In this document: in pieces, positions 21,701 to 51,261 of the stretch
Numbering within the stretch: the first letter of the stretch is position 1
Layout of the letters: every line of letters starts with the position of its first letter
From: an uncultured virus (IMG/VR IMGVR_UViG_3300022927_000007)
Lineage: Duplodnaviria; Heunggongvirae; Uroviricota; Caudoviricetes
Strand: one strand, 5' to 3'
DNA: 64,000 bases
IMG/VR virus record: IMGVR_UViG_3300022927_000007
Program-made: the position numbers and the translations under genes
The notes under the pieces: model-generated
Databases searched by the model: none
What the model saw: only the letters and a program-made list of their open reading frames with translations
What the model was told of the DNA's origin: nothing

Positions 21701-24700
21701 ACCGGACTTAGTCTTGCTTCTGTGCCGCCGTCCTCTAATGATCCAATTATATCAATTGTCGGTTGAGACAAGTATCCACTGCCTGAATTAGTTACTAGCA
21801 CACTTGTAATTTGTCCGTTACCAACAAATGCTTGAGCAGTTGCACCTGTACCTCCGCCGCCACTAATTACTAGTTTAGGAGCACTTGTATAACCACTGCC
21901 AGCATCAGCAATGTTAATTTGTGTTAATTCAAATCCAACATTATCTAACCAATGTTTGCTAGGATATGTTGTAGTATTAGCAACACCTGCAATAATTTCA
22001 TTATTAACAACTTGAACACTCTGCGGAATAATTCTTCCTTCTTGTTCATTATACACTGGTGCTAGATCAAAATCAGTAACTACATTATTAGCCGGATCAA
22101 TTTTTTCATATGATGAAATGTATTCTCTAATTTTAGTTTTATAAGGTTTCATTTCTTCTACATAATCTTCATAACTAGATAAGTTATCATTTTGGAAAGT
22201 AACTTTTTGTTCTAGTTCACCGATGTTATGTTTAGCCTTAACAAAACTTGTTTTAAATGCCCAATCGACATTTGGTTGTTCTGAGAATACATATCTTAAT
22301 CCTGCAAAGAACATCTCATTCCAGTGAAGCTGTAATTGATCAATAAAAATGTTATCTCTAAGGATAGTAATTATTTTTCTAAATTCAGCAACGGGTTCTG
22401 TATCATAAAATATTTTATCAAAACTTGCGCCATCATATGCAACATTGTCACTTGTTACATCGTATAGAGAATCAAGTAATTCAATTGTACCGCTTTCTCT
22501 ACCAATAGTTTTATAGTTAACACTATAATCAACAGTATCTTCGTTAGCTATTTTTTCTAATAGTAACCAACCGCCAGATCCAACGTTACTAATTTTAATT
22601 ACATCACCTATATTATCTGCAAGACCATAAATTTGGTAACTGCCTTCAAGTGTATAATTGATTAATGTAAATTGATTATAACCTGTATCATACCAGTCTT
22701 TGTATTTCCAGTAAAGATTTACATCATAGCTTTGAGTAAGAACTCTTTGCCATTCACCTAATACATATTGATATACACTCCACTTACCGTTAATGGACTC
22801 ATCGCTCTTAACCAATACTGCAAATTTTCTAATAGAAATTTTAACATTATTTGTATAGTTTTTACCAGAATTAATAATCCTAACACTGTTAATTCCTCCG
22901 TTGGCGTTTAGGGTAAACTCTAACTCGCCTTCAGATCCTAGTGTATCTGTAATAATGTATGTTGGTGGGTTGATATATCCTTGTCCCGGGTCTGTAATTA
23001 AAACATTAATGATAACACCGTTTTCAATTTCAAGTTGTAAGGTAGCAGGTCTAACTTTTGCAATACTTACAAATCTTAGTTCTGCATATGAATCTGAAGT
23101 TGTATCAAATATACCTGTTGCGATAGTTGGTAAAGGATCGCTATCTGTTAATTTTGTTAAATCAAACTCGTCAACAATTAGATTGTTTGCTAATATTTTA
23201 TTTGCACGTTCAACAAATTGTTTTCTTGCTTCAGTTTTATTAATAAACCAACTCTGTCTAGGTTCGTTAAGAGATCCGTATTTTTGTTTAATTGGAAGAT
23301 TAATATCAGGCACCGGTCTATCATTAGTGTCAAATCCTACTAAACTATCAATCCATTTTTGTTCAATTGTACTATTTGGACGACTAGTTTCCAATCCGTC
23401 ACTGATTAACTGATACTGAATATGTGTATTTTGCTGTTGGTTATCTATTGTCCACCAGTTAAAACTGATCGCTATATCTTTATCTTTAATTAAAGATTCG
23501 CAGTTATAAATTGCGAATCTATTATTACTTAAGATTGCAACAAACTTAATATTTGAATTTTCTGGATTACTAATTATCCTTGAAACAGACAATGCTGATA
23601 ACTTTCTAGTTTCAATTGCCGGGATTGTTGCTTTATTCTTAACCCAGTAATAGTAATAAGTTGTAAATGTTTGTGATGCACTATTATACTTGCGTCTAAC
23701 AGAATATGCACTATCACCGTATTTTGATGTACCACTAATACCTTTAGCAAGTCCTGCTTCTGTTTCTGATTGTGTATCCCATTCACTAGGTCTTAATTTG
23801 CTCTCAACCCACTCATATACATCGACTGTAGTACCAGGGTACAACTTATTAAAGTTTGCAGTTGATTCTGTAATATCTCCCTGATGATGATTGATAAATC
23901 TAGCACTATCAATATCCCACCATAATTTACCAACCCATTTTGTACTTGTGTAATCTAATGGTTGCGGTGTTACACCTGTAGCAGTTGATATTGTATATCT
24001 TGCAGGATCGTAACTAGTTTTAAAAGATATTTCTTGTTCAGCTACACCTGCAATTTTTCCTTGGATAGGATCAATATAGTCGAGATATGCAACTTGTGCA
24101 TTATTTGTTTTGTTATAAAGATACACACCTTTAAACTTGCTAAGATCTGCAGGTAGTACAGGCGATGTTACAATTGACCAACTCGTTGAGTTCAGTGGCT
24201 TTCTAAATTCTGCAACTACACCTTTATCAACAGTATTGTTTGTTGTAACTGTTTGATCTGGTAATCCTAAATATATGTGATTATTTTTAACTTTGATAAT
24301 ATTTCCAAAGTTTTCAGTATCTCTATCATATGAAAAGTCTTGTCCGTAAAGTAGTGTGTCATTTATTGTTTCGTATATTGACACTAGTCCACTATCATTG
24401 TCAACAGTATTAAGTTTAGTTGCATCGCCGTCGAATGTTGTTAACTCAACATCAAATGTAGTATACTTAATAATATCGCCACCTTTAGAAGTAATAGCAA
24501 GAGTATTGCCATCGAAGTCTAATTTAAATCCAAATTGTGTATTATCTGTTAAATCTTTAGGACGAAGTGTTTGAGTAAATGTATATACTCCGTCTTTTAA
24601 AATATAAACGTATACTGCTCCGCCATTAAGTGAAATATCACTATTATAAGGGGCGCCGACTGCAATTTTTTTACCATCGTTAGAAACTGCAATTGAACTT

Positions 24701-27700
24701 CCGTAATTTTCGCTTAAATTAAATGGTTCTAGTAATTGACTATAAACATATTGATCATTTACTAACTTATAAACTACAACTTTTCTGTTAGGAACACTAC
24801 TATCATCAGGATTTGTATATCTAGCAGTTAATACTAAGACTTCTCCTAGTGAGCTAGTATCAAACTCTTCGCCAATCTCTTCTAAGAATTGCTGTTCTAA
24901 TGTACTTTCTGTAATAGAATAGTTTGTATCATTAGGAACATACCCTAGTAAGTCTACTCCTGAATTAATTTCTGCCCATTCTGCTAAATTAAATGCGCCA
25001 GGTGTTATATTAGTTTTTGCTTCGTAGATAGAATCTCCGAATCTTACATACTCGCCGTCAAAGTAAGTAGCGTTTACACTATGCATACCTCTATACAACG
25101 GTTCAATACCTAAATTCCAATCTTCTGTTTCGTTTTTATCAAAGAAGTAAATTCTACCTTGATTTTCTTCGGTATTATTTCCTTTAGCAAGAACAAACAA
25201 GCGGTAAGATGTTGAAGATTTCTGTACAAACTTACAACTTGCTCCTAATTTTCTAAAATTATCAGAGTTGGGAACAGTATAATAGTTAACAAGTTGATAT
25301 ATAGATCCTGTCTTTTTATAAATTGCAAATGTACCTTCAGAATCGTTTCCACTTTCATAACCTGATGTTGTTACAGGAATATTGTAAACTCTTGTCCAGT
25401 CTAAGTTTAATGAAGACGGTGTTTCTGCTGTTTCTAAAATACCGTCAATTGTGTTTGAACTGTAGTGCCAGTACTCTAAATCTCTTAGATATGTTTGATT
25501 AGGTGGAACTGGAATGTTAGTATTAGTGTCAATAACAATTAATCCACCACTAATATCATTTTCAAGATGACATGAATTAATAGGACCAATTGTTCTTAGT
25601 GTTGAATCGTTTTCTACAAACTGTGCTGTAGAGTTTTGTCCGTAGTCGCTACCAAACGCCCACTGTCCTGATTTATTTTTTAAATAAATTTTTGCTACGC
25701 CAAACGCTCGTTCAATCCATGCAACTTCTGCGGTTTCACCAGTTGCACTATCAATAAGTTGTGTTCCAATAGAAGGAATAAATGGGTTACCTGATAAGTC
25801 AAAGTTTGTTAATCTAACTTCAAGCCAACCGTTCCACTTATCAGCTACGGTATGGATTGAGTTATTAAGATAATCAAAACTTAATCCTAATACAGGTTGC
25901 GGATCTTGTACGTTACCGTTTACTCTAATTTGATTTAACCAAAAACTAACTTCGTCATTAACTGATGTATCAGTATAATGTTGTGTAGATGTTCTAAACC
26001 ACCAACGGCCATCAATTATAACCGTTCCTGTTTGTCCTTGTCTATGAGACAGTATGCCAAATTCTGAAGGAAATGTAGGAGTAGTAGTGTTTGCTAATCT
26101 CTTAATATCTAAAATATTCGTAAAGAGTGAGTTAGATCTTATTTCATTTTCTAATTTAATATCAGTTACTACTAAGTTAGCATTTGTTTCTACAAGTTCA
26201 GTTGTACTAAATTCTGAACCTACATTAATGTGCCACCATCCTGCATGATAATTGTCTGTAATTTTTAATTGTCTTTCATAATCACCAACTAACACACCGT
26301 TTTGGTAAATTGACCCTGTATCTAAAAATGCTCCGTTTAGATTGTTTAGATAGATAGTCATTTGATTTTCATCGTTTACATAACGATAAGCAATAGTTGC
26401 TTTTGCAGTATCAGTAGTAATATCACTTCCAGACTCAGGTATTGATAATGCACTTTGAATATGTACAATAGCTTCTACTTTATGAACAATTTCATGACTA
26501 CCGTTAATAAATGTTTCATTTAAAACTGAGTCTCCGTTAAACGGTGCAATTCCTGCTGATGTTGTAGTTGTATATCTATTCCATTTTAGCTCAAGTACAT
26601 CTCCGGGCTTAGTTCCTTCAAATTGTTCAGTTTGCGCTCTAATTAAAATATGATCAGCAGGCGCATCATTAATAGTATAATTTCCTCTAACCATATATTC
26701 AACATCAGGATAAGATTGATCATCGCTATCATATTCGTCAATCTTACTTTGTTGGTTTGATGCATGACTTAAGAATTGTTGTATTGAGTCAGCATCTTGA
26801 ACTTTTCTAGATTTCCACAACTGTGATCTGTACAATACAATATCATTAATGTTATAAGCTACTGTGTTTTTATAATCGCCTCTAAATTTACTCTTAACAT
26901 TAGATGCATTAGGAGAACCTATAGCAAGATATTCTCCGTCTGGTGAAATTGAAACACTTGATCCAAATCCGCCACCGGATTCAAATATTCCTGTAAATTC
27001 ATCAATTTGTTGTCTAAGGCCAAATTCAGTATTGTCGCTAGGTCTAGCAAACACATAAACACTACCATTTAAGTCTTTAGGTGCCGAAACTGCTATTGTA
27101 TTGTTATTTTCTGTAACACTGATATCAGAACCAAAATCTTTGTCTGTACTATCTAACAAACCTGCTGTAACATTTTTAATGTCTGGTTTTAATTCGTATA
27201 CTTGTTTATTTTTTAATACAATCCATTTTCCTGTATCGTCGTCATCTACCCAAATAGTGTCAGTGATAGATGTATCACCGCTTAATGAGAACGTAGTAGG
27301 TGCATCGATAATAGCATTTGCGTCTGATAATCTCGACAATCTAACTGGCTTAAAGTAAGTAACATATCCTTTAATATCATCTAACTCGGTTGATTCACCG
27401 GTTGTTGATAATGTAATCTTATTAAGATTAATCTCTGCAATTTTATAAAATCCGTCTGTGGTTTCATTAGTATCAACAACTCCAATAATGTCACCAACAA
27501 TAAAGTTTGTTTTGCGATTTAGAGTAATAGTAAAAGTGCCATTTGATGTTGCTGTTACACTTTTAATTACATAATCGGTTGTAGCGTGTTTGTATACACT
27601 CCATGTTTGTTGACTTTTATTATTAGCTGTCCAAACAAACTCACCTGTGTTTATTGCTGAAATAGATTGATCTAATATATCATCATAGTTTAGTAATGAT

Positions 27701-30700
27701 AATTTTACATCATTTGTGTTTACATATCCTGCTGTTTTTGTATAACTGTTATCATCATTAAAGTATTTTACAGGGAACGGCTTATGGTCATAATTTTGAG
27801 ATTTTACATAGACATTATTTCTAGTTAATCTATAAACAAGACTTGTATCCTGCGGATCGATTTCATTGACAAGCTCTACAGTTTGTGGTTCCATTCTGTA
27901 TCTAGCTTCATCAAAAACTATATCAAACTGATCGTCACCTGTTGTTGCTCCGTATCGTCCAATTCTTACTGCCCATTCTTCAAAAAATTCTAAGCTATCT
28001 TTATTTGCACTACCTAGTTTATCAAACAACTTAGTAAGTACATTTTTTGTTCCTTTATCTTGAATTGCGCCTTGGAAGAATTTATACTGACTTACATCAT
28101 CATTAATAATATTTTCTAAATATCTACGTTTCTGATATCCAATTAAATGCTGTGCTAAACGCTGTTGCTCTGTGTCAAAGTTATCTGAATCAAGATCATA
28201 AAAATCAGTAAACTGTTTTGCTTTATAGTCCCAGTTAGGTAATAGTTTCTGTTCTGGTTTTTCATTTAATCTAACAAAACTTCTTTCGTTGAATGTTTCT
28301 GTACCAACAACATTAACTTTTGCAACATAATAGTATTGCTTGTACTTTACCAATGCACCAATAGAATAGTCTTGCCAAGATGCCCAGTCTTCAATTTTAG
28401 CATCATCGAATATAAATCCAGGAATATTATAAGATCCGTTCCATTCGTCTGAACGATAACCTTTAACTTTAATTCTTTCTTGTCTATATCCTTGTGCTCT
28501 ATTATAGATAACATCATTAAAGACTGTTTTGTTATCTATAATAACTGCATGTTCGTGTTGTACAACAGGAACTTTTAGATGGAATATTCCATCTTCAGTA
28601 TTTTTAACATAGATACCAAAAGAGTTAGTAGTATCTCTTTCTGTAGTTGCAAAGTCAGCAAGTAATCTTTTGCCGTCAGCTTTTAATAAACTATAATCAT
28701 AAAAATTATTATAAATGTCGTCAACAACAGTATATGCCTCTGCGAACATAACCTGTCTTGCACTTGGACTTAGTGTAATAACAGTACCGGTATCCCAGTT
28801 TTGTGTAGTCCAAAACATAAATTCTTTTGCAGATAATGTCCAGTTTTCAATTTCTTCAATATTTTGGTTGAAAAGTTCAAACTTAAATCCGTTACTATCT
28901 AAGAATTTTTGATATCCAAGAATAATATCAACTACTCCTTGAATATCGCTTACTAGTGTTCCGTAAGGAATTTCAACAACTTCTCTAGTGTCAAAATTCT
29001 TAGAGAAAAATGCCTGTGCGCCGCCTTCTTCCGGAAGTTCGGCTAATTTTTGGAAGTTGTCTAAATTAAATGAGGTTCCAGAAGTATGACCAATTTTTAC
29101 TCGATAATATACATTATTATTTTCTACAATTTGTCCAACTTCATAAAACTTACCGGTGTCCCAATTTAAGAAAGATTCACTCACTCCGCCGACACGAACT
29201 AATCTATCGTTATTTTTTCTTATGACAGAATATGTTTTAAAGATTGGTAAATCTCTATCATATCCTCTAATTATATAACCTTGCGGAACAATTTCTATGA
29301 TCATTCCACTATATGAATATACATTAATTGGTATACTTTTTGTTAACTGAATTTTATAGTTTTCGTCCGGTACAAAAACATTACCTTCATTAGTAGGAGT
29401 TCTTGCATCAAGAATTAATCTAAATTTAGACTTCTGAGTAAAGCCACCAATTTTAGATGCCAATTTATTTTGTAAAGAAGTTAGTTCTTGTTGATATGTT
29501 GAAAATTTTAATGTTTCATTTTGTGCCAAGTAACCTTGAATATAATTTATTATACCTGCTGTAAATACTCTTGAACTATCAGAAGCACTATTTGGAAATT
29601 TTAATTTATCTAATCTAATTCTTTTACTAGTTTCAGTATAAACTAATTCTCCGGCTCCGTTACGCTTAATTCTACTTACATCAAATGCAATACCAAAAAA
29701 CTGTGCTGGATTATTAATTGCCCAAGATGCCATTAATGCAAATGGATAATGTGAACTACGGCGCCATGCTGTTTCAACAGGTCCTTCATCACCGAATACA
29801 TATCCGTCGCTATAACTTGAATCAAGTCCAGACAATGCTATTCCTGATAAATTAGGAGGTAACAAGTTTCCTTGATCATCTGTTGGAATGTATTTAGAAA
29901 TTAGAGTATTTTTAAATTTGTTTCTATAAACAATTTTTTCATTTGGTGCTCTAACAATACCACTAGCCATGTCTTTCCATAACAACAGATTATTTCTTGT
30001 ATATGGTGCTGTTCCGTACTCTGTATCAAACCAATCAGGTTTTTCAGTTAGTCCTAAAATTTCCCAAGGATGGCTGTGCGGTCTATCTGTATTATAAAAG
30101 TCCTTATAAATTGCTCTCCAAAAACCTGGAAGAGAATTATTTTCAACATCGGCCCATTTGTTGTAACTAAATGTAAAACCGTTAGTTCTATCAAATCGGG
30201 TGTTTGCAGAATAGTCAGGAGTTCCAACTGTTTCTAACCATCTATTAAATTCAGAAATTAATGTTCTAGCAGTGCCATAACGTGTGAAGCCTGTTTTACG
30301 TGTTCTTGTTTCGACAAAATCAGCAATATCAAACACATTTTCGTTGTACTGCTGTTTTAGGTTATCATAAATTCTTCTTTCAAAGTCTAATAGCAGTCTA
30401 TCTCTGTAATCACCATAACATTTCCATAATGACCCATCATGTCCTTGTAGCATTGGTTGTGCGCCTGGCCATGATTCAAACGAATTAATATCGATTGTTG
30501 CATGATTTGCAGAGCTCGAAGGCATAAAAAATAGCTGATTACAACCTGCAAATACATGATCGTGTGCAACTCCGGCGCCGCCGTTGGCAGTATCGTAATC
30601 AATTGCATCTGCTTCAGATGTAAACAGTGGATAGAACCAACCAACTTTACCTTTAAAACTTTGTGTAGTAGTTTCGTCTCGTCCGTATACTTTATAAGGA

Positions 30701-33693
30701 CCAGTAACTTCGGTTACAACATTAATGTAAGTGTCGTCTAAAAATATTTCAGGTGTATATTTAGGATACAATCCTAACTTAGTAGGAGTTGGAGGTACCC
30801 AGCAACCATCTGTTGATTCAAATTCATATACATCTAAAATGTCGTTATTAGTAACTGTTATATTAAGTGTTAAGAAGCCGTCAACAGTTATAGTATAATC
30901 TCTATCTTTAACTAGCAAACTTCCGTTAAAATACGGAAGAACTGCATACTGATTTAATTTTGTAAAATCAATACCACGCTTTAAAGAAAATACAGTTTGT
31001 GATTGATCTTCAATTACATGTCTAGTTAACGTGTCACTACCAAACGGAACCATATCACTAAAATAAAATGGATCTTTATTAGTTTGTACTTCAGTAATAG
31101 ATTGCAAAATCTTATCAACGTGTACTTTAGTTTCTCCTTCGAAACCTAACTCATTTGCTACACGCAAAAATTCTCTTTTAAACTTAATGTACTCTAATCC
31201 AGAATAACGAATAGCTCTAATTGCATCAAAATCTTTATTTGTAATATTATACAGTGCAAGGTTAATTGGGCCACTATGTTGTACAAATCTTAATCCTAAC
31301 GGAGTAACATCTCCTAGATCTTTTAAATTACTCGATCCTGGAAATATTCCATTAAAATCTTTTGCATTATCAACAATACTACCTACATGATCTAAAACTT
31401 CACCTAATGTAAATGATTCAACATTTTCGTTTAGTGGATTCTTTTCTAAGTTAGTCGGAAACTCGTAATATCCTCTAGTATTCTTTGGAGTCTTAGTATA
31501 AGTTTTAATAACTAACTTGTCGCCTACAGTAAGATCATTATTGAAATTAATATAACAGTATCCATTAAACCTATCAATTAGATAATCAGTATTTTCTTTT
31601 TTGCGATTATTATTGACGTAAACTTTAATTTCTAAATCAGCAATAGTAGCACTATTATCATAAACATCGATAATAAAGTTATTTGTTCTAGTATCAACTG
31701 TTGGTTGTTGAATAACTGGCTGTACTGATTTTGTAGCCGCTTTGGTCCAACCTGACAAACTGCTATAAGTTGTTCTGTCAGTATATTTTCTTAATAGTCC
31801 TGTATCAGTGCTTACGTTAAATACGTCAGTTAAAACATCATACTGGTAAGTGTCTGATAATAAATTAAAATCAAATACAATATCGCCACTATTTTCAATA
31901 GTTCTATATGACAGTGGGAATCCTAATTCAGTATCATTAGTTCCTGTTCCTACCTTATAACTAAAAATTTTGTTACCAGCAAAAGAACTTCCGTCTAATG
32001 TAGATAGCGCAATTCCTTGATCATTATATAAATCAAACAAAGGTTGCTGATTTACAGATGTTTTATCTTGTGCTTGTTTCCAAACTGTTCCTGTATAGTA
32101 GAAAACTTTACCTTTAAATTTTTCACCAGATTTAACTAGTACTGTTTCATTTTCTAATGGTGTAGTATCAGTAGTTTCTATTAATGTAATTTGTCTGCTA
32201 CCATTATGAGAAATAAATTTAACTTCATAAATCTTGCCGCTAACTAATGAATCTGGATCTGCGGTAAACAATACTCTCATACCGTTTACAAGTTCAATGC
32301 CGTCGACAAAATAACCTACTTGTCCTTCAATATCTGAAAATACGTCTGTTGTTACAGTATCAACTAGGTCAACAGCACCTTTTGCTTCAGTACCATAATT
32401 AAAAAGTTTTAAACCTGGTTCAAACTCAATAATAGGTCTTGTAGCTCTGTAGGTTTGATCAAGTTCTGCCGGTACATTATTAATTAATGCAGTAGTTTCA
32501 ATAACAGTTTTATGTGTCCATTTATTATAACGAGACCATTGATTTCTATCTTTGGCTGCTCTGTTAATAACAATATAATCTTTGAGAGTAGCATACGAAA
32601 TTGCTTCATCAAATGGTAGATCAGCAAAACCTTGCATATCATATTCAACGCCTTGATCTAATAGATAGTCAGCTGTAATAACAAGATCTGATTCTGAAAT
32701 TAATTTAATACTATTTCCAACTCCTTCAACATACCATGTTCCAGTTGCATAAATTTCAGGAGTTACTTTTCCGTAAAAGTTAACTCTCATGCCGTTAGAT
32801 AGTTCATATCCATTCTGCATGGTGTATGTTTTTTTGCCTAAAATTTCAGCAGTAATATTAATTTCAGTAGCATCAATAATATTTTTAATAATAATTAAAC
32901 CCGATGCTTCGATATCATTGTCGTTTGTATAATACAGATAATCAGGAGATTCAAGATCTACAACAAATGTAAATTGTCCGGTTTCTACGCTTTGCTGACT
33001 TACTCCAACATTATAGAGATTAGAATCGTCTTTAACTGATCTGCTTGTTCTAATTGACAACGGCATATCAACTGTGTTAATATCAAATGTATATGTTTGT
33101 CCTCTATACAATGTTAGTGTAGGATTACTAGTCGGAACATCTGGATTAAATGTATATGCAAAATTATCAGTATTGTCTTGCTTTCCTACTGTAAAGGTAC
33201 TAACAATTTCTGTTGAACTTCCGTATACAGGAATAGAACTAGGACCTGCTGGTAGCCAATAATATTCACGAAAGTTTACAAATTTATCCCAATCAATATG
33301 AGGACTCCAAGCATAGTATTCTTGACTGTTTAGTAAGCTATGATTATCTACTTCGCCGTTTCTAATTTTACTAGCATTTACATAGTCTCTATAATCTCTA
33401 TAAAAAGTAGTATTTCCAAGTGTATCTTCAACCAATGCAACTGGTTCTAATTGATAGTTACGTCTATCACCTGCTAGTTCTGCAATATAATTGTCGCCTG
33501 TCTTAAAGGCTTTTGCATTTTTTCTTCCGATAAATCCGTCAGTCTTTTGTACAACACCTGGTTGCATTAACTGATCTAAAGTACTACTTAAAAACTTTTT
33601 ATTTGCTGTTGTTCTAAAATAGCGAGGCAACATATCAGCGGTGCGTCTTTTAGAATCATCATCAATTGGAATACCATTTTCATCTTGCGCCAT
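18730..33693 (-). CDS. Giant (4987 aa) virion structural protein in the gp7 (wedge) position
   Basis: Uninterrupted 15-kb ORF directly after gp6. FG-GAP-like repeats (FGSSVSISPDGEYLAIGSP, YGSSIAVSNDGKKIAVGAP), GSGY.S.P beta repeats, and C-terminal DG.T..F / V.LNG repeats. Confidence 0.75.
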   Translation of the reverse strand: MAQDENGIPIDDDSKRRTADMLPRYFRTTANKKFLSSTLDQLMQPGVVQKTDGFIGRKNAKAFKTGDNYIAELAGDRRNYQLEPVALVEDTLGNTTFYRDYRDYVNASKIRNGEVDNHSLLNSQEYYAWSPHIDWDKFVNFREYYWLPAGPSSIPVYGSSTEIVSTFTVGKQDNTDNFAYTFNPDVPTSNPTLTLYRGQTYTFDINTVDMPLSIRTSRSVKDDSNLYNVGVSQQSVETGQFTFVVDLESPDYLYYTNDNDIEASGLIIIKNIIDATEINITAEILGKKTYTMQNGYELSNGMRVNFYGKVTPEIYATGTWYVEGVGNSIKLISESDLVITADYLLDQGVEYDMQGFADLPFDEAISYATLKDYIVINRAAKDRNQWSRYNKWTHKTVIETTALINNVPAELDQTYRATRPIIEFEPGLKLFNYGTEAKGAVDLVDTVTTDVFSDIEGQVGYFVDGIELVNGMRVLFTADPDSLVSGKIYEVKFISHNGSRQITLIETTDTTPLENETVLVKSGEKFKGKVFYYTGTVWKQAQDKTSVNQQPLFDLYNDQGIALSTLDGSSFAGNKIFSYKVGTGTNDTELGFPLSYRTIENSGDIVFDFNLLSDTYQYDVLTDVFNVSTDTGLLRKYTDRTTYSSLSGWTKAATKSVQPVIQQPTVDTRTNNFIIDVYDNSATIADLEIKVYVNNNRKKENTDYLIDRFNGYCYINFNNDLTVGDKLVIKTYTKTPKNTRGYYEFPTNLEKNPLNENVESFTLGEVLDHVGSIVDNAKDFNGIFPGSSNLKDLGDVTPLGLRFVQHSGPINLALYNITNKDFDAIRAIRYSGLEYIKFKREFLRVANELGFEGETKVHVDKILQSITEVQTNKDPFYFSDMVPFGSDTLTRHVIEDQSQTVFSLKRGIDFTKLNQYAVLPYFNGSLLVKDRDYTITVDGFLTLNITVTNNDILDVYEFESTDGCWVPPTPTKLGLYPKYTPEIFLDDTYINVVTEVTGPYKVYGRDETTTQSFKGKVGWFYPLFTSEADAIDYDTANGGAGVAHDHVFAGCNQLFFMPSSSANHATIDINSFESWPGAQPMLQGHDGSLWKCYGDYRDRLLLDFERRIYDNLKQQYNENVFDIADFVETRTRKTGFTRYGTARTLISEFNRWLETVGTPDYSANTRFDRTNGFTFSYNKWADVENNSLPGFWRAIYKDFYNTDRPHSHPWEILGLTEKPDWFDTEYGTAPYTRNNLLLWKDMASGIVRAPNEKIVYRNKFKNTLISKYIPTDDQGNLLPPNLSGIALSGLDSSYSDGYVFGDEGPVETAWRRSSHYPFALMASWAINNPAQFFGIAFDVSRIKRNGAGELVYTETSKRIRLDKLKFPNSASDSSRVFTAGIINYIQGYLAQNETLKFSTYQQELTSLQNKLASKIGGFTQKSKFRLILDARTPTNEGNVFVPDENYKIQLTKSIPINVYSYSGMIIEIVPQGYIIRGYDRDLPIFKTYSVIRKNNDRLVRVGGVSESFLNWDTGKFYEVGQIVENNNVYYRVKIGHTSGTSFNLDNFQKLAELPEEGGAQAFFSKNFDTREVVEIPYGTLVSDIQGVVDIILGYQKFLDSNGFKFELFNQNIEEIENWTLSAKEFMFWTTQNWDTGTVITLSPSARQVMFAEAYTVVDDIYNNFYDYSLLKADGKRLLADFATTERDTTNSFGIYVKNTEDGIFHLKVPVVQHEHAVIIDNKTVFNDVIYNRAQGYRQERIKVKGYRSDEWNGSYNIPGFIFDDAKIEDWASWQDYSIGALVKYKQYYYVAKVNVVGTETFNERSFVRLNEKPEQKLLPNWDYKAKQFTDFYDLDSDNFDTEQQRLAQHLIGYQKRRYLENIINDDVSQYKFFQGAIQDKGTKNVLTKLFDKLGSANKDSLEFFEEWAVRIGRYGATTGDDQFDIVFDEARYRMEPQTVELVNEIDPQDTSLVYRLTRNNVYVKSQNYDHKPFPVKYFNDDNSYTKTAGYVNTNDVKLSLLNYDDILDQSISAINTGEFVWTANNKSQQTWSVYKHATTDYVIKSVTATSNGTFTITLNRKTNFIVGDIIGVVDTNETTDGFYKIAEINLNKITLSTTGESTELDDIKGYVTYFKPVRLSRLSDANAIIDAPTTFSLSGDTSITDTIWVDDDDTGKWIVLKNKQVYELKPDIKNVTAGLLDSTDKDFGSDISVTENNNTIAVSAPKDLNGSVYVFARPSDNTEFGLRQQIDEFTGIFESGGGFGSSVSISPDGEYLAIGSPNASNVKSKFRGDYKNTVAYNINDIVLYRSQLWKSRKVQDADSIQQFLSHASNQQSKIDEYDSDDQSYPDVEYMVRGNYTINDAPADHILIRAQTEQFEGTKPGDVLELKWNRYTTTTSAGIAPFNGDSVLNETFINGSHEIVHKVEAIVHIQSALSIPESGSDITTDTAKATIAYRYVNDENQMTIYLNNLNGAFLDTGSIYQNGVLVGDYERQLKITDNYHAGWWHINVGSEFSTTELVETNANLVVTDIKLENEIRSNSLFTNILDIKRLANTTTPTFPSEFGILSHRQGQTGTVIIDGRWWFRTSTQHYTDTSVNDEVSFWLNQIRVNGNVQDPQPVLGLSFDYLNNSIHTVADKWNGWLEVRLTNFDLSGNPFIPSIGTQLIDSATGETAEVAWIERAFGVAKIYLKNKSGQWAFGSDYGQNSTAQFVENDSTLRTIGPINSCHLENDISGGLIVIDTNTNIPVPPNQTYLRDLEYWHYSSNTIDGILETAETPSSLNLDWTRVYNIPVTTSGYESGNDSEGTFAIYKKTGSIYQLVNYYTVPNSDNFRKLGASCKFVQKSSTSYRLFVLAKGNNTEENQGRIYFFDKNETEDWNLGIEPLYRGMHSVNATYFDGEYVRFGDSIYEAKTNITPGAFNLAEWAEINSGVDLLGYVPNDTNYSITESTLEQQFLEEIGEEFDTSSLGEVLVLTARYTNPDDSSVPNRKVVVYKLVNDQYVYSQLLEPFNLSENYGSSIAVSNDGKKIAVGAPYNSDISLNGGAVYVYILKDGVYTFTQTLRPKDLTDNTQFGFKLDFDGNTLAITSKGGDIIKYTTFDVELTTFDGDATKLNTVDNDSGLVSIYETINDTLLYGQDFSYDRDTENFGNIIKVKNNHIYLGLPDQTVTTNNTVDKGVVAEFRKPLNSTSWSIVTSPVLPADLSKFKGVYLYNKTNNAQVAYLDYIDPIQGKIAGVAEQEISFKTSYDPARYTISTATGVTPQPLDYTSTKWVGKLWWDIDSARFINHHQGDITESTANFNKLYPGTTVDVYEWVESKLRPSEWDTQSETEAGLAKGISGTSKYGDSAYSVRRKYNSASQTFTTYYYYWVKNKATIPAIETRKLSALSVSRIISNPENSNIKFVAILSNNRFAIYNCESLIKDKDIAISFNWWTIDNQQQNTHIQYQLISDGLETSRPNSTIEQKWIDSLVGFDTNDRPVPDINLPIKQKYGSLNEPRQSWFINKTEARKQFVERANKILANNLIVDEFDLTKLTDSDPLPTIATGIFDTTSDSYAELRFVSIAKVRPATLQLEIENGVIINVLITDPGQGYINPPTYIITDTLGSEGELEFTLNANGGINSVRIINSGKNYTNNVKISIRKFAVLVKSDESINGKWSVYQYVLGEWQRVLTQSYDVNLYWKYKDWYDTGYNQFTLINYTLEGSYQIYGLADNIGDVIKISNVGSGGWLLLEKIANEDTVDYSVNYKTIGRESGTIELLDSLYDVTSDNVAYDGASFDKIFYDTEPVAEFRKIITILRDNIFIDQLQLHWNEMFFAGLRYVFSEQPNVDWAFKTSFVKAKHNIGELEQKVTFQNDNLSSYEDYVEEMKPYKTKIREYISSYEKIDPANNVVTDFDLAPVYNEQEGRIIPQSVQVVNNEIIAGVANTTTYPSKHWLDNVGFELTQINIADAGSGYTSAPKLVISGGGGTGATAQAFVGNGQITSVLVTNSGSGYLSQPTIDIIGSLEDGGTEARLSPVLGNGKARSTHIRCKFDRVTKTYLFQTLSEIETFATTLDQLEIDLKWPMQLKTTQVTVTIDGLESLRSEYTFSNVKDTTKGYTRYFGRISFTNALDANKEVIVTYNKAPDLLQAQDRINLYYNPNTGMYGNDLGQLLDGIDYGGVEVTSFDFGGGSGWDSDGWFTSTYDTFDTTFEDEIFQFGDDSTRILTFGSPLEVGAIYNIYRNGVRIDDPNYPDNPTNPNALIASVTGAGQTGIAITDDGDIVEDTIIVFDEDIIPLSSGDILVFRKTTSDGSFLPDPRSYDTILSGGDLQFNTARGFNPEEIIVDGDGFVTPTTSKGPEEQVPGQILDAVDIRVFHRPEAGGSILTSNSYRANGTEIVFEFGIQPQNDKGLIVKLDSVIQPSTVYDVNYKNKTVTFKTVPASGTLINIVSISGNGQDLLEEGQYVADGSTSAFTTKAKYSKELDFYVTVDGGEVEAVLVDDNEKAQILFGSPPKDQSLVSYFVYSKTDAFSKIEVEEFVGDGSTKLFDLTKTPYSAIPNSHNVIVKQGNRLLNPGYNQQFDVTTAQREYFLEIWQTPVGSFDASDVLFVLNGKELTIAVEYNIRPSNSSVILEPGIGKDGDILEAYIVTDGDYAFGSIQQINNQNTWVDSGKTLQLKVAPEIGETLTVYTFNKHDSMGFERINYDIVARETLVVGTEDYIQFNHIKNGLIKLRYPAVEVQYVWLTVNGVLQTPSVDYTLTTDKQYLRYKQSFVDNDVVEIIQFSAVGQITPKFGFSQFKDILNRNIYKRLGDVQPYKLAEPLYTFDKQIVLDNANGLSSPDKNSKTPGIIFVNGERIEYLIKDGNTLKQIQRGTLGTGVPTEHLIGSDVYNANQMQTAPYADKTIVDEIVADGTSSVFELGFTPISINEFEVFVGGRRLRKNAIQSFDYTLNQDSPEADVTLAAEFSVDGTTPFVSLLNTPAEGIKIQIVRRQGTLWTETPGITLFDSETLVARFFKAEKVELPK

Positions 33694-47484: not shown

Positions 47485-49257
47485 ATGATCCGTATTAAAG
47501 ACCTTACAGTTAAAAACTTTATGAGTGTGGGGAATCAGACTCAAGCAATTGATTTCAGCAAAGAAAAGTTAACATTAGTTCTTGGAGAGAACCTAGATCA
47601 AGGCGGAGACGACGCTGGTAGTAGAAACGGAACTGGTAAAACTACTATTATTAACGCCCTCTCTTATGCTTTGTATGGAACTGCATTAACTAACATCAAA
47701 CGCAATAACCTTATCAATAAAACAAACTCTAAAGGTATGGTTGTTTCTCTTGACTTTGAAAAGGACGGGGTTAATTATAAAATTGAAAGAGGTCGTAGTC
47801 CTACATTCTTAAAGTTTTATATTAACAGTCAAGAGCAAGAAGTAGAAGATGAATCGCAAGGCGACAGTCGTAAAACACAAGAATTTATTAATGACATGCT
47901 TGGCATGTCGCACGACATGTTTAAGCATATTGTAGCACTTAATACATATTCAGAACCATTCCTTGCAATGCGTCAAAACGATCAACGTGCTATCATTGAA
48001 CAATTATTAGGTATTACTATTCTGTCTGAAAAGGCAGACGCTCTTAAGGAGCAAGTTAGACAGACTAAAGAAGAAATTACAACTGAAACTCTTAAAATTG
48101 ATGCTGTTCAATCTGCAAACGAAAAGATTAGTTCAACAATTGAAAGTTTACAAAAAACGCAACGTGCTTGGCTTGCTAAAAAAGAACAAGACTGTACAAG
48201 ACTACAACAAGGTATTACAGAATTAGAACATTTAGATGTGGAAGCAGAATTAGAAGCACACGAAAATCTATCTAATTGGAACGAACATAACAACGCCATT
48301 TTGGCTCTTAAAAAAGAATTAAGCACGTTAGAGCCAGCACTGTTACGTGCTGACAAAAGTGTAGAAAAAGCAGAAAAAGACATCGAAAATCTTGAAGATG
48401 CAACTTGTTATACTTGTGGACAAGCATTACACGAAGATAAAAAAGAAGAAATTGCACAGCGCAAGAACAAAGAACTTGCGGATGCAATTGCTTATCAATC
48501 AGAGATTAATGTTAAGGTTAAAGACGTAATGCTTGCACTTAAAGAAATAGGTAACATTAACGGTAAACCTACTACATTTTACGAAACAGTCAAAGAAGCA
48601 TACGAGCATAGACAAAACGTTGATAGTTTAAAACAAACACTTGATAATAAGAGACAAGAAGTTGATCCGTATCAAACACAAATCGATGAATTGAACAATA
48701 GTGCTATTCAACAAATTGACTGGACTCCTATTAATGAGCTTACTGGTTATAAGGAACACCAAGAATTCTTGTTAAAATTGCTTACTAACAAAGACAGTTT
48801 TATTCGTAAGAAAATTATTGAACAAAACTTAGCATATCTAAACAACAGACTAACATATTATCTTGACCGTTTAGGGTTGCCGCATCAAGTTGTATTCCAA
48901 AACGATTTGAATGTTGAGATTACACAACTAGGACAGGACTTAGACTTTGATAACTTGTCACGAGGCGAGCGCAATAGACTTATCTTAGGTATGAGTTTTG
49001 CATTCCGTGATGTTTGGGAAAGTCTGTATCAAAATATTAACTTGTTGTTTATTGACGAGTTAATTGATAGCGGTATGGATACCGCTGGCGTAGAAGGATC
49101 ACTAGCAGTTCTTAAGAAAATTGCACGTGAAAGAGAAAAAAATATTTTCTTAATTTCACACAAAGACGAATTAGTAGGAAGAGTAAACACTATTCTTAAA
49201 GTTGTAAAAGAAAATGGCTTTACAAGTTACGAGAATGATGTTGAAGTTGTAGAATGA
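47485..49257 (+). CDS. gp46: Recombination ATPase subunit (Rad50/SbcC-like)
   Basis: Walker A NGTGKTT, coiled coil with CYTC zinc hook, LSRGE signature, Walker B LFIDE, ISH. Confidence 0.9.
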   Translation: MIRIKDLTVKNFMSVGNQTQAIDFSKEKLTLVLGENLDQGGDDAGSRNGTGKTTIINALSYALYGTALTNIKRNNLINKTNSKGMVVSLDFEKDGVNYKIERGRSPTFLKFYINSQEQEVEDESQGDSRKTQEFINDMLGMSHDMFKHIVALNTYSEPFLAMRQNDQRAIIEQLLGITILSEKADALKEQVRQTKEEITTETLKIDAVQSANEKISSTIESLQKTQRAWLAKKEQDCTRLQQGITELEHLDVEAELEAHENLSNWNEHNNAILALKKELSTLEPALLRADKSVEKAEKDIENLEDATCYTCGQALHEDKKEEIAQRKNKELADAIAYQSEINVKVKDVMLALKEIGNINGKPTTFYETVKEAYEHRQNVDSLKQTLDNKRQEVDPYQTQIDELNNSAIQQIDWTPINELTGYKEHQEFLLKLLTNKDSFIRKKIIEQNLAYLNNRLTYYLDRLGLPHQVVFQNDLNVEITQLGQDLDFDNLSRGERNRLILGMSFAFRDVWESLYQNINLLFIDELIDSGMDTAGVEGSLAVLKKIAREREKNIFLISHKDELVGRVNTILKVVKENGFTSYENDVEVVE

Positions 49258-49451
49258 ATGACGACACACACGATTTATTAACTAAAGCATATATGGCTTA
49301 CTTTAAGGCTAACGAAAAATTTGAGGCTAGAAATTCTGTGCGAACACATAGAGAAGCAAGAAGATGGTTAAGAGAGATACGTCTTTTAGCTAAAACTCGT
49401 ATGGACGAAATACACAATAAGCATAATTCCAAAAAAGAGGCAGACGAATAG
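49254..49451 (+). CDS. Small hypothetical protein
   Basis: ATGA overlap with gp46; helical, basic 65 aa. Confidence 0.65.
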   Translation: MNDDTHDLLTKAYMAYFKANEKFEARNSVRTHREARRWLREIRLLAKTRMDEIHNKHNSKKEADE

Positions 49452-49472
49452 GCACACAATGTAAGTATACTC

Positions 49473-49922
49473 ATGCAGTGGACTTACAAAGGACAAACAA
49501 TTGACACGATACCAGACGAGTATGAAGGCTTTGTTTATCTTATCACAAATACCACTACAGGCCAGAAATACATAGGCAAAAAACTAGCAAGATTTAAAAC
49601 TACTAAGCCACCCTTAAAAGGCAAGAAAAATAAACGCAGAGGCAGTAAAGAATCAGACTGGCGAGACTATTGGGGATCATCAGACAGATTAAATGCAGAC
49701 GTACAGGCACTAGGCCCAGAAAACTTCACAAGAGAAATATTATACCTATGTAAAGGTAGGGGCGAAATGTCCTACATAGAGGCAAGAGAACAGTTTGATC
49801 GTAGAGTACTCGAAACAGATGAATACTATAATGGTATTATTAATGTTAGAGTCGGCGGATCAGACAAACTCAAACAGGCATTGCTAGAACATCACATCCA
49901 GGCAAAACAATCCAACACTTAA
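49473..49922 (+). CDS. Stand-alone GIY-YIG endonuclease (T4 endonuclease II/DenA-like size)
   Basis: GFVYLITN....KYIGKK, YWGSS, conserved E (YIEAREQ) and YYN. Confidence 0.8.
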   Translation: MQWTYKGQTIDTIPDEYEGFVYLITNTTTGQKYIGKKLARFKTTKPPLKGKKNKRRGSKESDWRDYWGSSDRLNADVQALGPENFTREILYLCKGRGEMSYIEAREQFDRRVLETDEYYNGIINVRVGGSDKLKQALLEHHIQAKQSNT

Positions 49923-50290
49923 GGTTGGCGGGCCAGTTTGAAAATACCGCTGAGAAAAAGGTCCCCTGAGAAGGACACTCGTACACGTTGATCGACCACC
50001 ACTGTGAGGAAGCCATCAAAAGAATTGGGCTCACTGGTTGACGTAGATAGATTGTTGGCTGTCAAAAAACACAAACACAGTACATAAAAACTCTTTAGCA
50101 ATAGGAACGAAGCGAGAGGTAGTTGGAAACAACGATGTCGACGTAGGTTGGGAAAGGTCAGAGCCCATTGTACTTTGTGTATAAACAATTACCTACTTCC
50201 AAGTCTCGGCTGTGACGAACTCACATGAAGTTTTGAGATTAGATGGAACCGTAACAGGTTCCGTCTGACTGAAACAATCTACATGAAGCA
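49912..50290 (+). ncRNA. Candidate large structured non-coding RNA (unassigned)
   Basis: No credible ORF; visibly GC-richer than neighbouring intergenic DNA; many local and long-range helices with G-U pairs and GNRA loops (GAAA, GCAA) that favour the plus strand. Boundaries approximate. Confidence 0.55.
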
Positions 50291-50294
50291 ATTA

Positions 50295-50402
50295 CATTAT
50301 TGCTATCGCAATAATGCTTTAATTCATATCTATTACTTCTATCAACAAACGAAGTGTTATAGTTTGAGCGTTAGCGAAAACAAAATGAGCGTTAGCTCAT
50401 TT
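50295..50402. repeat. Cluster of inverted repeats / GNNA hairpins with a duplicated TGAGCGTTAGC
   Basis: CATTATTGC-TATC-GCAATAATG (50295-50316); AAATGAGC-GTTA-GCTCATTT (50383-50402); direct repeat at 50365 and 50386. Confidence 0.6.
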
Positions 50403-50414
50403 CAATCATATAGA

Positions 50415-50600
50415 TTAATGTAAATCAGGATCTCTTCCAAAACCTGGCTTTACTAAACTAATCTTGACTTCCTGATATGACAAAACTACTTCGGGTATTA
50501 CAGATAGCATATGACAAATATATTCATTTGCTTCATCTAATGAGTTGACAGTTTCGTATATGTGATCATTTTGATCAACAATATTATATCTTGTAATCAT
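50415..50600 (-). CDS. Small hypothetical protein
   Basis: 61-aa ORF with TAAATA (50608-50613) just upstream. Confidence 0.55.
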   Translation of the reverse strand: MITRYNIVDQNDHIYETVNSLDEANEYICHMLSVIPEVVLSYQEVKISLVKPGFGRDPDLH

Positions 50601-50643
50601 AGTTGATTATTTAATATCATATAAAGTTTGAAAAAATACAAAC

Positions 50644-51261
50644 TTAATGATTAATGAAATCTCCAGTTTTTATTCTTTGTACACATTGATCATAATCGTC
50701 ATAGATACTAAACTGTAATTGTACTCTTATATCATCTGTGTCATTTCTAACACCATGGGGAACTTCTGTGTTTGTAATTGTAGGATGCTTTAAAGAATAA
50801 AAATGTGATCCTAAATAAAGATTTTCATTATGATCAGCATCATTGCCGTGGATATCTAGACCTTCTAAAATTTTATTTTCGTAAAAATCAATAGGAGCAT
50901 CTTTACCTGCTGGGTGAATAGGAAACATAATACAAGCCTTACGAGAAAAGTCGATATGCGGCCTAAAAACAAATCCTGGTTTGTATACAACTATTGCAAT
51001 ATTTCCGCTTCCAATTTTTTTAGTAATTGGGTTAAACATTTTTACTAATTTTTTAATAACAGGATAGGTTAGATAGTTATCTGACTTAATTGAACTAAAC
51101 AGTCCGTGCGTGGCACGATCACGTATTGTACTATAATCAACTTCTTGATCCTTAATTTCGCTATAGAGTTGTTGTAATTCTTGTAAAGGATATTCGATAT
51201 CTGTAATAGTATATGCGTATTTTTCTACGTTAGATGTTAGTTCTCTTCTATCAGTGAACAT
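50644..51261 (-). CDS. 2OG-Fe(II) oxygenase-like (cupin/DSBH) protein
   Basis: PHID (HxD)...PHGVRN...R..LQFS. Start reassigned to ATG 51261 with a GGAGAG Shine-Dalgarno; ATAAATA at 51288-51294. Confidence 0.6.
   Translation of the reverse strand: MFTDRRELTSNVEKYAYTITDIEYPLQELQQLYSEIKDQEVDYSTIRDRATHGLFSSIKSDNYLTYPVIKKLVKMFNPITKKIGSGNIAIVVYKPGFVFRPHIDFSRKACIMFPIHPAGKDAPIDFYENKILEGLDIHGNDADHNENLYLGSHFYSLKHPTITNTEVPHGVRNDTDDIRVQLQFSIYDDYDQCVQRIKTGDFINH

Follow-up and report, generated by a model that had tools for sequence, protein, structure and literature searches.

A candidate family of large, pseudoknotted RNAs in uncultured marine phages, encoded beside a SegE-type GIY-YIG nuclease gene

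Large, conserved, multiply pseudoknotted RNAs are rare, and each known kind, such as ribozymes, transfer-messenger RNA (tmRNA), guide-RNA scaffolds or the GOLLD/ROOL cages, has given rise to a field of its own. Two of these groups are among the known systems closest to the locus described here. The omega RNAs (HEARO) of IscB and TnpB are pseudoknotted scaffolds that abut or overlap a small nuclease gene. GOLLD and ROOL RNAs (see also bioRxiv 10.1101/2024.12.08.627333) run to several hundred nucleotides (nt) with many helices, pseudoknots and variable inserts, are found in phages and metagenomes, and are modular; they had no known function when discovered. The locus lies in the DNA of an uncultured virus (IMG/VR record IMGVR_UViG_3300022927_000007), of which we analysed a stretch of 64,000 nt (the window), part of a 124-kb record with a CheckV completeness of 35%. 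Here an open reading frame (ORF) for a 149-amino-acid GIY-YIG nuclease is directly followed on the plus strand by a stretch that an earlier note, made by a model from the letters alone, had proposed as the RNA of a nuclease-RNA system. Our comparison of relatives indicates that positions 49911-50320 of the plus strand very probably encode a real, autonomous structured RNA family, and the overall explanation that we favour, with moderate confidence, is a gene for a large, multiply pseudoknotted, autonomous phage non-coding RNA with the nuclease as a homing-endonuclease-like neighbour.

The stretch behind the nuclease stop codon does not look like a protein gene. No plus-strand ORF of at least 30 amino acids lies between 49922 and 50283, as the earlier note had held, and no conserved ORF covers the RNA stretch on either strand in 93 relatives. 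An 89-amino-acid minus-strand ORF present in the window was ruled out as a conserved gene, since neither its frame nor its ends are kept among relatives; over the invariant core block, the minus-strand frame that stays open longest is frame 0 in 55 sequences, while 32 have frame 1 and 6 have frame 2, and its ends vary widely. The G+C content of the RNA stretch is 44.6%, against 35.3% for the window. Relatives of the nuclease were collected by a protein-seeded scan of IMG/VR, of which the best 80 of 598 were kept, and every one of the 51 close GIY-YIG loci that have 480 nt or more of downstream sequence aligns with the window through at least 50284, most of them to about 50381, at an identity (73-84%) equal to that of the coding flank.

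The conservation takes the form expected of base-paired RNA. Compensatory changes are visible in an alignment of 48 distinct sequences (A1), in which RNAalifold independently finds helices H1-H4, H6 and H9 (Table 1). A second alignment (A2) of 36 diverse sequences, with a minimum pairwise distance of 0.18, was scored on a structure worked out by hand, whose 12 helices comprise 65 pairs. In this alignment 93.7% of the cells in the proposed pairs are paired, versus 33.9-37.7% when the 3' partners are slid by 1-3 columns, and 33 pairs show two-sided changes, versus 6-16 when the partners are slid. None of 500 column shuffles reaches any of the observed measures; that control is blind to the kinship of the sequences, which counts against relying on it, whereas the slid-partner control is not. 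Because H1, H3 and H9 contain conserved G-U pairs, we assign the function of the RNA to the plus strand. The ornate, pseudoknotted plus-strand RNA that the earlier note had placed at or within the end of the nuclease ORF is thus borne out by covariation and conserved G-U pairs, and the covariation in relatives that it had looked to as a check is present.

Two covariation-supported pseudoknots, PK-A and H8, are carried by the RNA as judged from these alignments. PK-A encloses the nuclease stop codon and becomes AACAGAA/TTCTGTT in a clade linked to terminase genes; since its pairing is kept or replaced from clade to clade, the RNA is taken to include the last codons of the upstream ORF. The 15 helices that had been proposed by eye fared unevenly. 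Four are supported by covariation, namely GCGG/CCGC, GTCC/GGAC, the hairpin at 50239-68 and GTAGGT/ACCTAC (50143/50191), which is H8; AGTCTCG/TGAGATT is partly supported, and the rest are not. CCAAC/GTTGG over the stop codon is paired in 82.8%, as against 99.5% for the same 5' strand with 50053-58, and CGTTGA/TCGACG, ACTGTG/CACAGT, AGCCA/TGGCT, TGGGCTC/GAGCCCA and TAGATTGTT/AACAATCTA are paired in only 37-82%. The suggested GCCAGT/ACTGGT pseudoknot falls in that weak group as well; pseudoknots were rightly expected, the supported ones being different. One strand of the core block, 50143-50, can also pair with CAATCTAC at 50275-82 (96.9% paired, almost invariant), and these two alternative partners make a conformational switch possible.

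Comparison of members shows the family to be modular: the 5' domain is swappable (at least two architectures), and the 3' core, which extends from H5 through R2, is conserved. The domain inside H3 differs from relative to relative, and in some members a quite different 5' domain is joined to the same core. The most divergent members are without the 33-nt core block and keep a 3' cassette, ACUC-R1, conserved hairpin, UGAC and AUCU-R2 in that order, together with the terminator. Given that this cassette outlasts the core block, the 3' part appears to be the conserved functional end of the RNA.

Table 1. Features of the RNA locus and the adjoining nuclease gene (positions in the window).
Feature	Positions	Strand	Basis
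Whole predicted structured RNA, from 5' pseudoknot strand to terminator end	49911..50320	+	Conservation, covariation, terminator, metatranscriptome contigs
PK-A 5' strand CCAACA, within the last ORF codons; pairs with 50053-50058	49912..49917	+	99.5% paired; two-sided changes in 4/6 pairs
H1 hairpin, 49927-31 with 49947-51	49927..49951	+	97.8% paired; two-sided changes in 4/5 pairs
H2, 49952-54 with 49978-80; encloses variable hairpin 49961-76	49952..49980	+	Covariation
H3, 49985-91 with 50038-44; encloses variable, replaceable domain	49985..50044	+	96.8% paired; 4 pairs two-sided
H4 hairpin, 50046-50 with 50059-63; loop 50053-58 is the PK-A 3' strand	50046..50063	+	97.2% paired; two-sided 5/5
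H5b/H5 5' strands; partners at 50169-50180, together closing the conserved core	50075..50084	+	H5 97.5% paired, 5/5 two-sided; H5b weaker, 73%
H6 hairpin, 50091-94 with 50115-18; invariant loop AGGAACGAAGC	50091..50118	+	Alignments, covariation
H7 hypervariable hairpin; 13 nt in the window, over 110 nt in certain relatives	50119..50134	+	Alignments
Near-invariant 33-nt core block GTCGACGTAGGTTGGGAAAGGTCAGAGCCCATT; includes H8 5' strand 50143-48	50137..50169	+	Invariant columns
H8 3' strand ACCTAC; with 50143-48 crosses H5 as second pseudoknot	50191..50196	+	100% paired; compensatory change in L071/L077
H10, 50202-07 with 50235-40; encloses GGCTG, ACTC and R1	50202..50240	+	65% paired (MAFFT); compensatory in L009, L041
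R1, first direct-repeat copy ACATGAAG, preceded by conserved ACTC	50223..50230	+	Repeat comparison
H9 conserved hairpin between R1 and R2, 50242-50 with 50257-65, then conserved TGAC	50242..50265	+	97.8% paired; kept in divergent members
R2, second direct-repeat copy ACATGAAG, preceded by conserved ATCT	50281..50288	+	Repeat comparison
Predicted intrinsic terminator of the plus-strand transcript	50295..50316	+	Prediction; stem covaries; RNA-library cover falls
Conserved word TTGAGCGTTAGCGAAAAC and minus-strand terminator of convergent genes; outside the RNA proper	50364..50404		Conservation, terminator prediction
GIY-YIG nuclease gene, SegE-type single domain, 149 amino acids; last codons double as RNA	49473..49922	+	ORF list, Pfam, relatives

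R1 and R2 are copies of one word of 7-10 nt, in the window ACATGAAG, whose double occurrence had been remarked on in the earlier note and is far from chance. The word differs among phages and is the same twice inside each phage. R1 and R2 were compared in 93 distinct sequences in a model-fitted alignment whose columns are independent of repeat identity; the 7-mers are identical in 87 of the 93 and the first six bases in 92, the single exception being an alignment shift in locus L117, whose repeat is ATCATCAAGT. Ten variants of the word occur among these sequences (ACATGAA, ACATAAT, ACATGAT, ACGTGAA, ACATAAA, GCATGAA, ACATGAG, GCATAAA, GTATGAA and ACAGGAA), to which divergent loci add AGATAAT, AGATGAT, GGTGAA and others. 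The spacing between R1 and R2 is 49-68 nt among relatives, none of which has one or three R units. By mutual information every variable R1 column peaks at the R2 column 58 nt downstream, with no third column standing out, and neither this measure nor a complement search finds a cis partner complementary to R within the RNA. Identity without complementarity, in a nearly free sequence, is the look of the repeat boundaries of processed RNAs, of recombination cores and of template re-alignment sites. Since R1 and R2 are identical, may have almost any sequence and have no complement in cis, two sites of one trans-acting, sequence-reading activity are the likeliest interpretation, and we tentatively propose that a single partner recognises both.

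The RNA contains four ACAT(A/G)A-like words, at 49917-24 (ORF stop), 50082-90 (after H5), 50223-30 (R1) and 50281-88 (R2), of which R1 and R2 are the sole pair to covary. By coincidence the first three read as Thr-stop in the ORF frame in the window; a conserved frame through these words is precluded by the variable inserts of relatives.

Coding and antisense roles for R were tried and rejected. As a sense codon followed by UGA or UAA, or as a start codon, R would follow the pattern N3-U-R-A seen in most T4-like members, a pattern that fails in L125, L136 and L117 and in candidate words such as TGCCAAG. Inserts of variable length rule out a conserved frame running into R, and translational hopping is rejected because the landing copy bears the same stop. 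R is not a convincing seed for phage messenger RNA, as the window contains its complement TTCATGT at 10 sites, where 16 would be expected, and none of the sites is notable, nor does R track the context of the nuclease start codon. A type III toxin-antitoxin RNA is likewise rejected, since only the 7-10 nt boundary words repeat, and never in more than two copies at unit spacing.

The RNA starts in the last codons of whichever ORF precedes it and ends at the intrinsic terminator. On the interpretation that we favour, it would act alone, as neither guide nor cofactor of the GIY-YIG protein. Its pseudoknotted body may be a protein-binding scaffold or may itself be catalytic. One trans-acting, sequence-reading activity would recognise both R1 and R2 and delimit a hairpin unit of about 50-68 nt, which would either be cut out at both words or present the words to a copying enzyme as points of re-alignment. 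Excision or processing of the R1-R2 unit is a doubtful possibility; bivalent docking at the two words is improbable, and for template re-alignment there the chances are about as small. An equally long shot, drawn by analogy with the telomerase and DRT2/DRT10 RNAs, is that a polymerase recruited by the pseudoknotted body, not encoded beside the RNA and perhaps host-encoded, copies the unit of about 58 nt, jumps back because its nascent 3' end matches either word, and makes tandem repeats, or, in a sibling version, that one activity cuts at the two words, setting free a tiny hairpin RNA or closing it into a circle. If true, this would be a templating or self-processing RNA of a new kind, borne by a phage.

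The RNA might instead act on the DNA that encodes it, serving a replication origin as an R-loop RNA or as a pre-primer in the manner of ColE1 RNA II. The template DNA of the locus would be the sole nucleic acid certain to remain complementary to both R words, and the locus lies at a gene-orientation switch beside the recombination genes gp46/gp47. However, an intrinsic terminator comes right after R2, a second clade has the RNA beside terminase genes, and G-U pairs and pseudoknots favour a folded, free RNA over a persistent hybrid, and we regard an origin RNA as improbable.

The stretch is present in 20 sequencing runs, 7 of them RNA libraries. Contigs from four RNA libraries cover the ORF and the RNA, some bridging the junction between them (for example 49860-49971), and the summed depth of RNA-library contigs is 20-60 and drops to 0-7 after about 50281-50342, in agreement with the terminator at 50295-50316. 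Co-transcription with the nuclease, which the earlier note had presumed, is therefore probable, since the contigs bridge the ORF-RNA junction and their cover stops near the plus-strand terminator. These observations, together with a PK-A that uses the last ORF codons and encloses the stop codon, and with a plus strand on which no promoter-like site was found from 49200 to 50290, would also suit a cis-acting 3' end of the upstream messenger RNA, in which the fold controls termination, translation or decay of the nuclease message only. Such a role sits poorly with the occurrence of the same RNA behind unrelated ORFs, and with the fact that the 5' domain touching the ORF is swappable, the conserved part lying 150-370 nt downstream. 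To our knowledge, 400 nt with two pseudoknots and 30-nt invariant blocks also far exceed the needs of known 3' stabilisers, and we consider this account unlikely.

The adjacency of RNA and nuclease within the T4-like group is real. Among 71 loci that were ascertained by the RNA word alone and have 1500 nt upstream, 69 have a GIY-YIG gene upstream, at 48-100% protein identity. Co-occurrence is, however, obligate in neither direction, contrary to what a joint nuclease-RNA system would lead one to expect. Loci L117 and L125 and five contigs found by a clade-specific word are without a GIY-YIG gene within 4 kb upstream of the RNA, and the RNA loci of this second phage type have the terminase large subunit gene downstream. 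A search from the nuclease side, seeded with the Melnitz-type nuclease, gave 66 loci with 700 nt or more of downstream sequence. The RNA cassette is present in 33 of them. In 19 the following ORF starts 34-190 nt downstream and leaves no room for the RNA; in the other 14 the gap is long and shows no more than candidate repeat pairs, and 7-mers repeated by chance are common at such spacing. In the cultured phage Melnitz itself the gap after the nuclease is 148 nt, and the covariance model described below finds no match in the locus.

An RNA that binds the GIY-YIG protein and guides, activates or restrains the nuclease, on the model of IscB and TnpB with their omega RNAs, would explain why the start of the RNA overlaps the last part of the nuclease ORF, as with TnpB omega RNAs, why the pair is so nearly constant in the T4-like loci and is kept down to 48-58% protein identity, and why the protein has no DNA-recognition domain beyond its 123-position catalytic domain. 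It fits badly with RNA lacking the nuclease (five contigs), with the 19 of 66 loci and Melnitz in which the nuclease leaves no room for the RNA, and with relatives of the L085/L137 type, in which another small ORF lies between nuclease gene and RNA. Nor do the alignments contain the single-stranded, hypervariable segment of fixed length expected of a guide, which had been suggested as something to look for: the variable parts are hairpins of changing length, and only a covarying terminator stem follows R2. The RNA-guided GIY-YIG nuclease, an attractive idea, is accordingly corrected as unsupported, and a nuclease-RNA particle of any kind is quite improbable. Because RNA and nuclease can each be present where the other is absent, and no guide segment is seen, the nuclease is read as a neighbour. 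The RNA is probably independent of it in mechanism, and the nuclease gene is possibly a homing-type gene settled beside a conserved RNA gene, where it would be a frequent lodger in the manner of free-standing homing-endonuclease genes.

The extra ORF between nuclease and RNA was seen in L085, L137, L098, L103, L106, L120, L136 and L154. That of L085 encodes 88 amino acids with CxxC...W..P motifs and no Pfam match, and the extra ORF of L085-type loci ends with the same ...AAC ACN TAA GG junction.

The adjacency could also reflect a partly DNA-level element, in which the H9 hairpin and its flanking words are a single-stranded DNA target of the nuclease. Ssn nucleases, as described in PMC11893778, are single-domain GIY-YIG enzymes that bind a single-stranded DNA hairpin repeat and cut upstream of it, the repeats adjoining their genes, and the present locus has a conserved hairpin about 320 nt from a single-domain GIY-YIG gene. 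Yet the clade that lacks the nuclease retains the cassette, the 124-kb record has a single copy of the element, unlike the case of Ssn repeats, and Pfam places the protein under SegE, so that a target of this kind seems very unlikely.

In the collections searched, the RNA family has been found so far only in uncultured marine phages. A scan of IMG/VR with a 19-nt core word found at least 120 stretches holding it, and blastn of 50,697 phage records gave no match to the RNA. The core word has four matches in prokaryotes (one-genome-per-species contigs, unrelated genomes), which we judge to be chance because they score at most 20 bits with a covariance model (model R1) built on 50134-50292. The same model finds one copy in the 124-kb record and no further copies, and behind more distant GIY-YIG genes, where the RNA would be expected, it gives weaker full-length matches of 16-78 bits. 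Of the 80 related contigs, 29 end within 340 nt downstream of the nuclease stop (49923-50262; loci L015-L083), many at about 50068. Such ends are probably assembly breaks where co-occurring strains share identical RNA blocks, and the element would account for an assembly nuisance, contigs breaking inside the RNA stretch. Other related contigs begin or end beside the core block.

No known RNA family accounts for the locus. Rfam 15 has no match at gathering threshold anywhere in the window, the outcome on which the earlier note had made novelty depend; at relaxed E values, 49400-50700 gives only chance matches of 13-19 bits (E 1.8-9), and no recurrent family appears in 12 diverse relatives at E up to 5. 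ARAGORN predicts no tmRNA gene in the window, Rfam gives no tmRNA match there, and the H9 loop is not a T-loop because its length and sequence vary; related phages carry a two-piece tmRNA at another locus, as reported in PMC9004378. Likenesses noticed by eye to tmRNA, RNase P, a group I intron and a T-box, and to a glutamine riboswitch, a hammerhead, a k-turn and a C/D box, are without backing from Rfam or ARAGORN, and each fails on the alignment variants. A group I intron of degenerate or unusual form, or a ribozyme of another known class, that accompanies its homing endonuclease deserves separate mention, since H5 and H8 could be read as P3/P7-like crossed helices, GIY-YIG genes are classic passengers of group I introns, and introns have reportedly been seen, in one study (PMC10690162), at the 3' end of transposon nuclease genes. 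However, neither Intron_gpI nor any other ribozyme model matches (E up to 10 in the window, up to 5 in the 12 relatives), the place of P8 has 10 nt that form no hairpin and are deleted in many relatives, and about 20 nt separate the 'P7' and 'P3'' strands. With no interrupted gene, no conserved ORF after R2 and no skipping contigs seen, an intron or known ribozyme is a far-fetched explanation. No description of the RNA family was found in Rfam 15 or in the literature searched, and relative to these it appears to be new; the supplements of the virus-RNA catalogue PMC10690425, which lay outside the search, may list the motif anonymously. The alternative that the earlier note had kept in reserve, an independent phage RNA or ribozyme, fits the evidence.

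Several observations pull the other way. The minimum free energy of 49905-50300 is no better than that of dinucleotide shuffles (z -0.48 on the plus strand, +1.35 on the minus strand), an outcome that the earlier note had named as refuting and to which we give little weight because such folding is blind to pseudoknots and the comparative evidence is strong. The 124-kb record, itself 35% complete, has no match to reverse transcriptase (PF00078) or RNA ligase (PF09414), and no reverse transcriptase adjoins the RNA in any locus inspected; a comparison with telomerase- and DRT-like templates therefore finds the identical boundary repeats and, in this incomplete record, no cognate reverse transcriptase. 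RNA-library contigs that skip or repeat the R1-R2 unit were not found, the two joints seen being strain replacements, and there is no sign of excision or tandem copying. The RNA-library data are contigs, which do not show strand, true ends or rare forms and may include DNA carry-over. The nuclease link is near-fixed in the T4-like group and persists at 48-58% protein identity, unlike the usual sporadic selfish gene, which leaves room for a functional tie such as shared expression or a nuclease acting on local DNA. Finally, the mechanism outlined above is inferred from anatomy alone.

The nuclease ORF itself was correctly called. Its product matches Pfam SegE_GIY-YIG (PF19835) with an E value of 2.9e-35 and 121.6 bits (cut-off 25) over profile positions 1-123 of 123, and by this full-length match above the curated cut-off it belongs to the SegE-type GIY-YIG nucleases; no PDB relative was found by sequence. 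The absence of an appended DNA-recognition domain was also rightly noted, as the protein has nothing of that kind outside its catalytic domain of 123 positions. What the note took for a 'very basic insert' is no insert: since the whole profile is matched, the basic stretch is part of the family domain. The ORF is 149 amino acids long in 73 of the 80 relatives, and a decayed C-terminal half of a longer Seg gene was ruled out on the strength of this constant length, three stop-rich forward frames and RNA-type substitutions. Before the nuclease start, at 49440-49472 and in relatives, the order TAGGCA, 3-5 nt, GGTAAGTA, 4-5 nt and ATG is kept, possibly as a promoter or ribosome-binding context, and near the end of the nuclease ORF stands AGGCAAAAC, which resembles GGTAAGTA.

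The 124-kb record has a T4-like gene content. Upstream of the nuclease lie, in order, ORFs of 336 amino acids, 590 amino acids (Rad50/SbcC-like, with Pfam matches to AAA_23, SMC_N and the Rad50 zinc hook) and 65 amino acids, and minus-strand genes convergent with the nuclease ORF and the RNA begin at 50600. In nine relatives (L038, L040, L044, L050, L056, L058, L059, L070 and L074) about 740 nt are inserted precisely where the Rad50-like gene ends (49258), and L061, L082 and L083 have a longer replacement in place of the region of the 65-amino-acid ORF. The word TTGAGCGTTAGCGAAAAC at 50364-50381 has covarying flanks in most relatives, lies between two convergent terminators and is unique in the window. 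Elsewhere in the window a single minus-strand ORF of 4987 amino acids extends over 18730-33693, followed on the same strand by ORFs of 1162, 846 and 1028 amino acids, which may be giant proteins of structural or fibre-like type. Contigs near-identical to the 124-kb record reach 167-169 kb, and the phage may considerably exceed typical pelagimyophages in size.

The interest of the family lies in its abundance in marine phage contigs, its presence in metatranscriptome assemblies, and a compact, testable hallmark: two words whose identity is needed and whose sequence is nearly free, which points to sequence reading beyond base pairing within the RNA. Set against known systems, the RNA differs from GOLLD and ROOL in matching none of their Rfam models and in being fused to the end of an ORF, and we know of no counterpart in them to the R1-hairpin-R2 cassette. 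It differs from omega RNAs in having neither an obligate nuclease partner nor a guide segment; the nuclease is of the GIY-YIG type, not RuvC/HNH as in IscB and TnpB, and transposon ends were not seen. The template RNAs of telomerase, DRT2 and DRT10 offer another likeness, a pseudoknotted scaffold with a segment between identical short repeats, which in those systems let the nascent strand re-align for repeated copying (see also bioRxiv 10.64898/2026.06.29.735271); unlike them, the present record has no reverse transcriptase match, and tandem products were not seen. With the ColE1 RNA II pre-primer the RNA shares length and elaborate folding, action on its own DNA being a proposal, and it differs from RNA II in the terminator that directly follows it and in the lack of origin evidence at the locus. 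For the nuclease, the nearest comparison is with Seg-type homing-endonuclease genes. Unlike free-standing Seg genes, the present one encodes only 149 amino acids without a C-terminal DNA-binding part and is near-fixed, not sporadic, beside the RNA; as with them, its family also sits in other contexts, and, like T4 SegB in its tRNA cluster, a SegE-type domain is here encoded beside a very conserved RNA gene.

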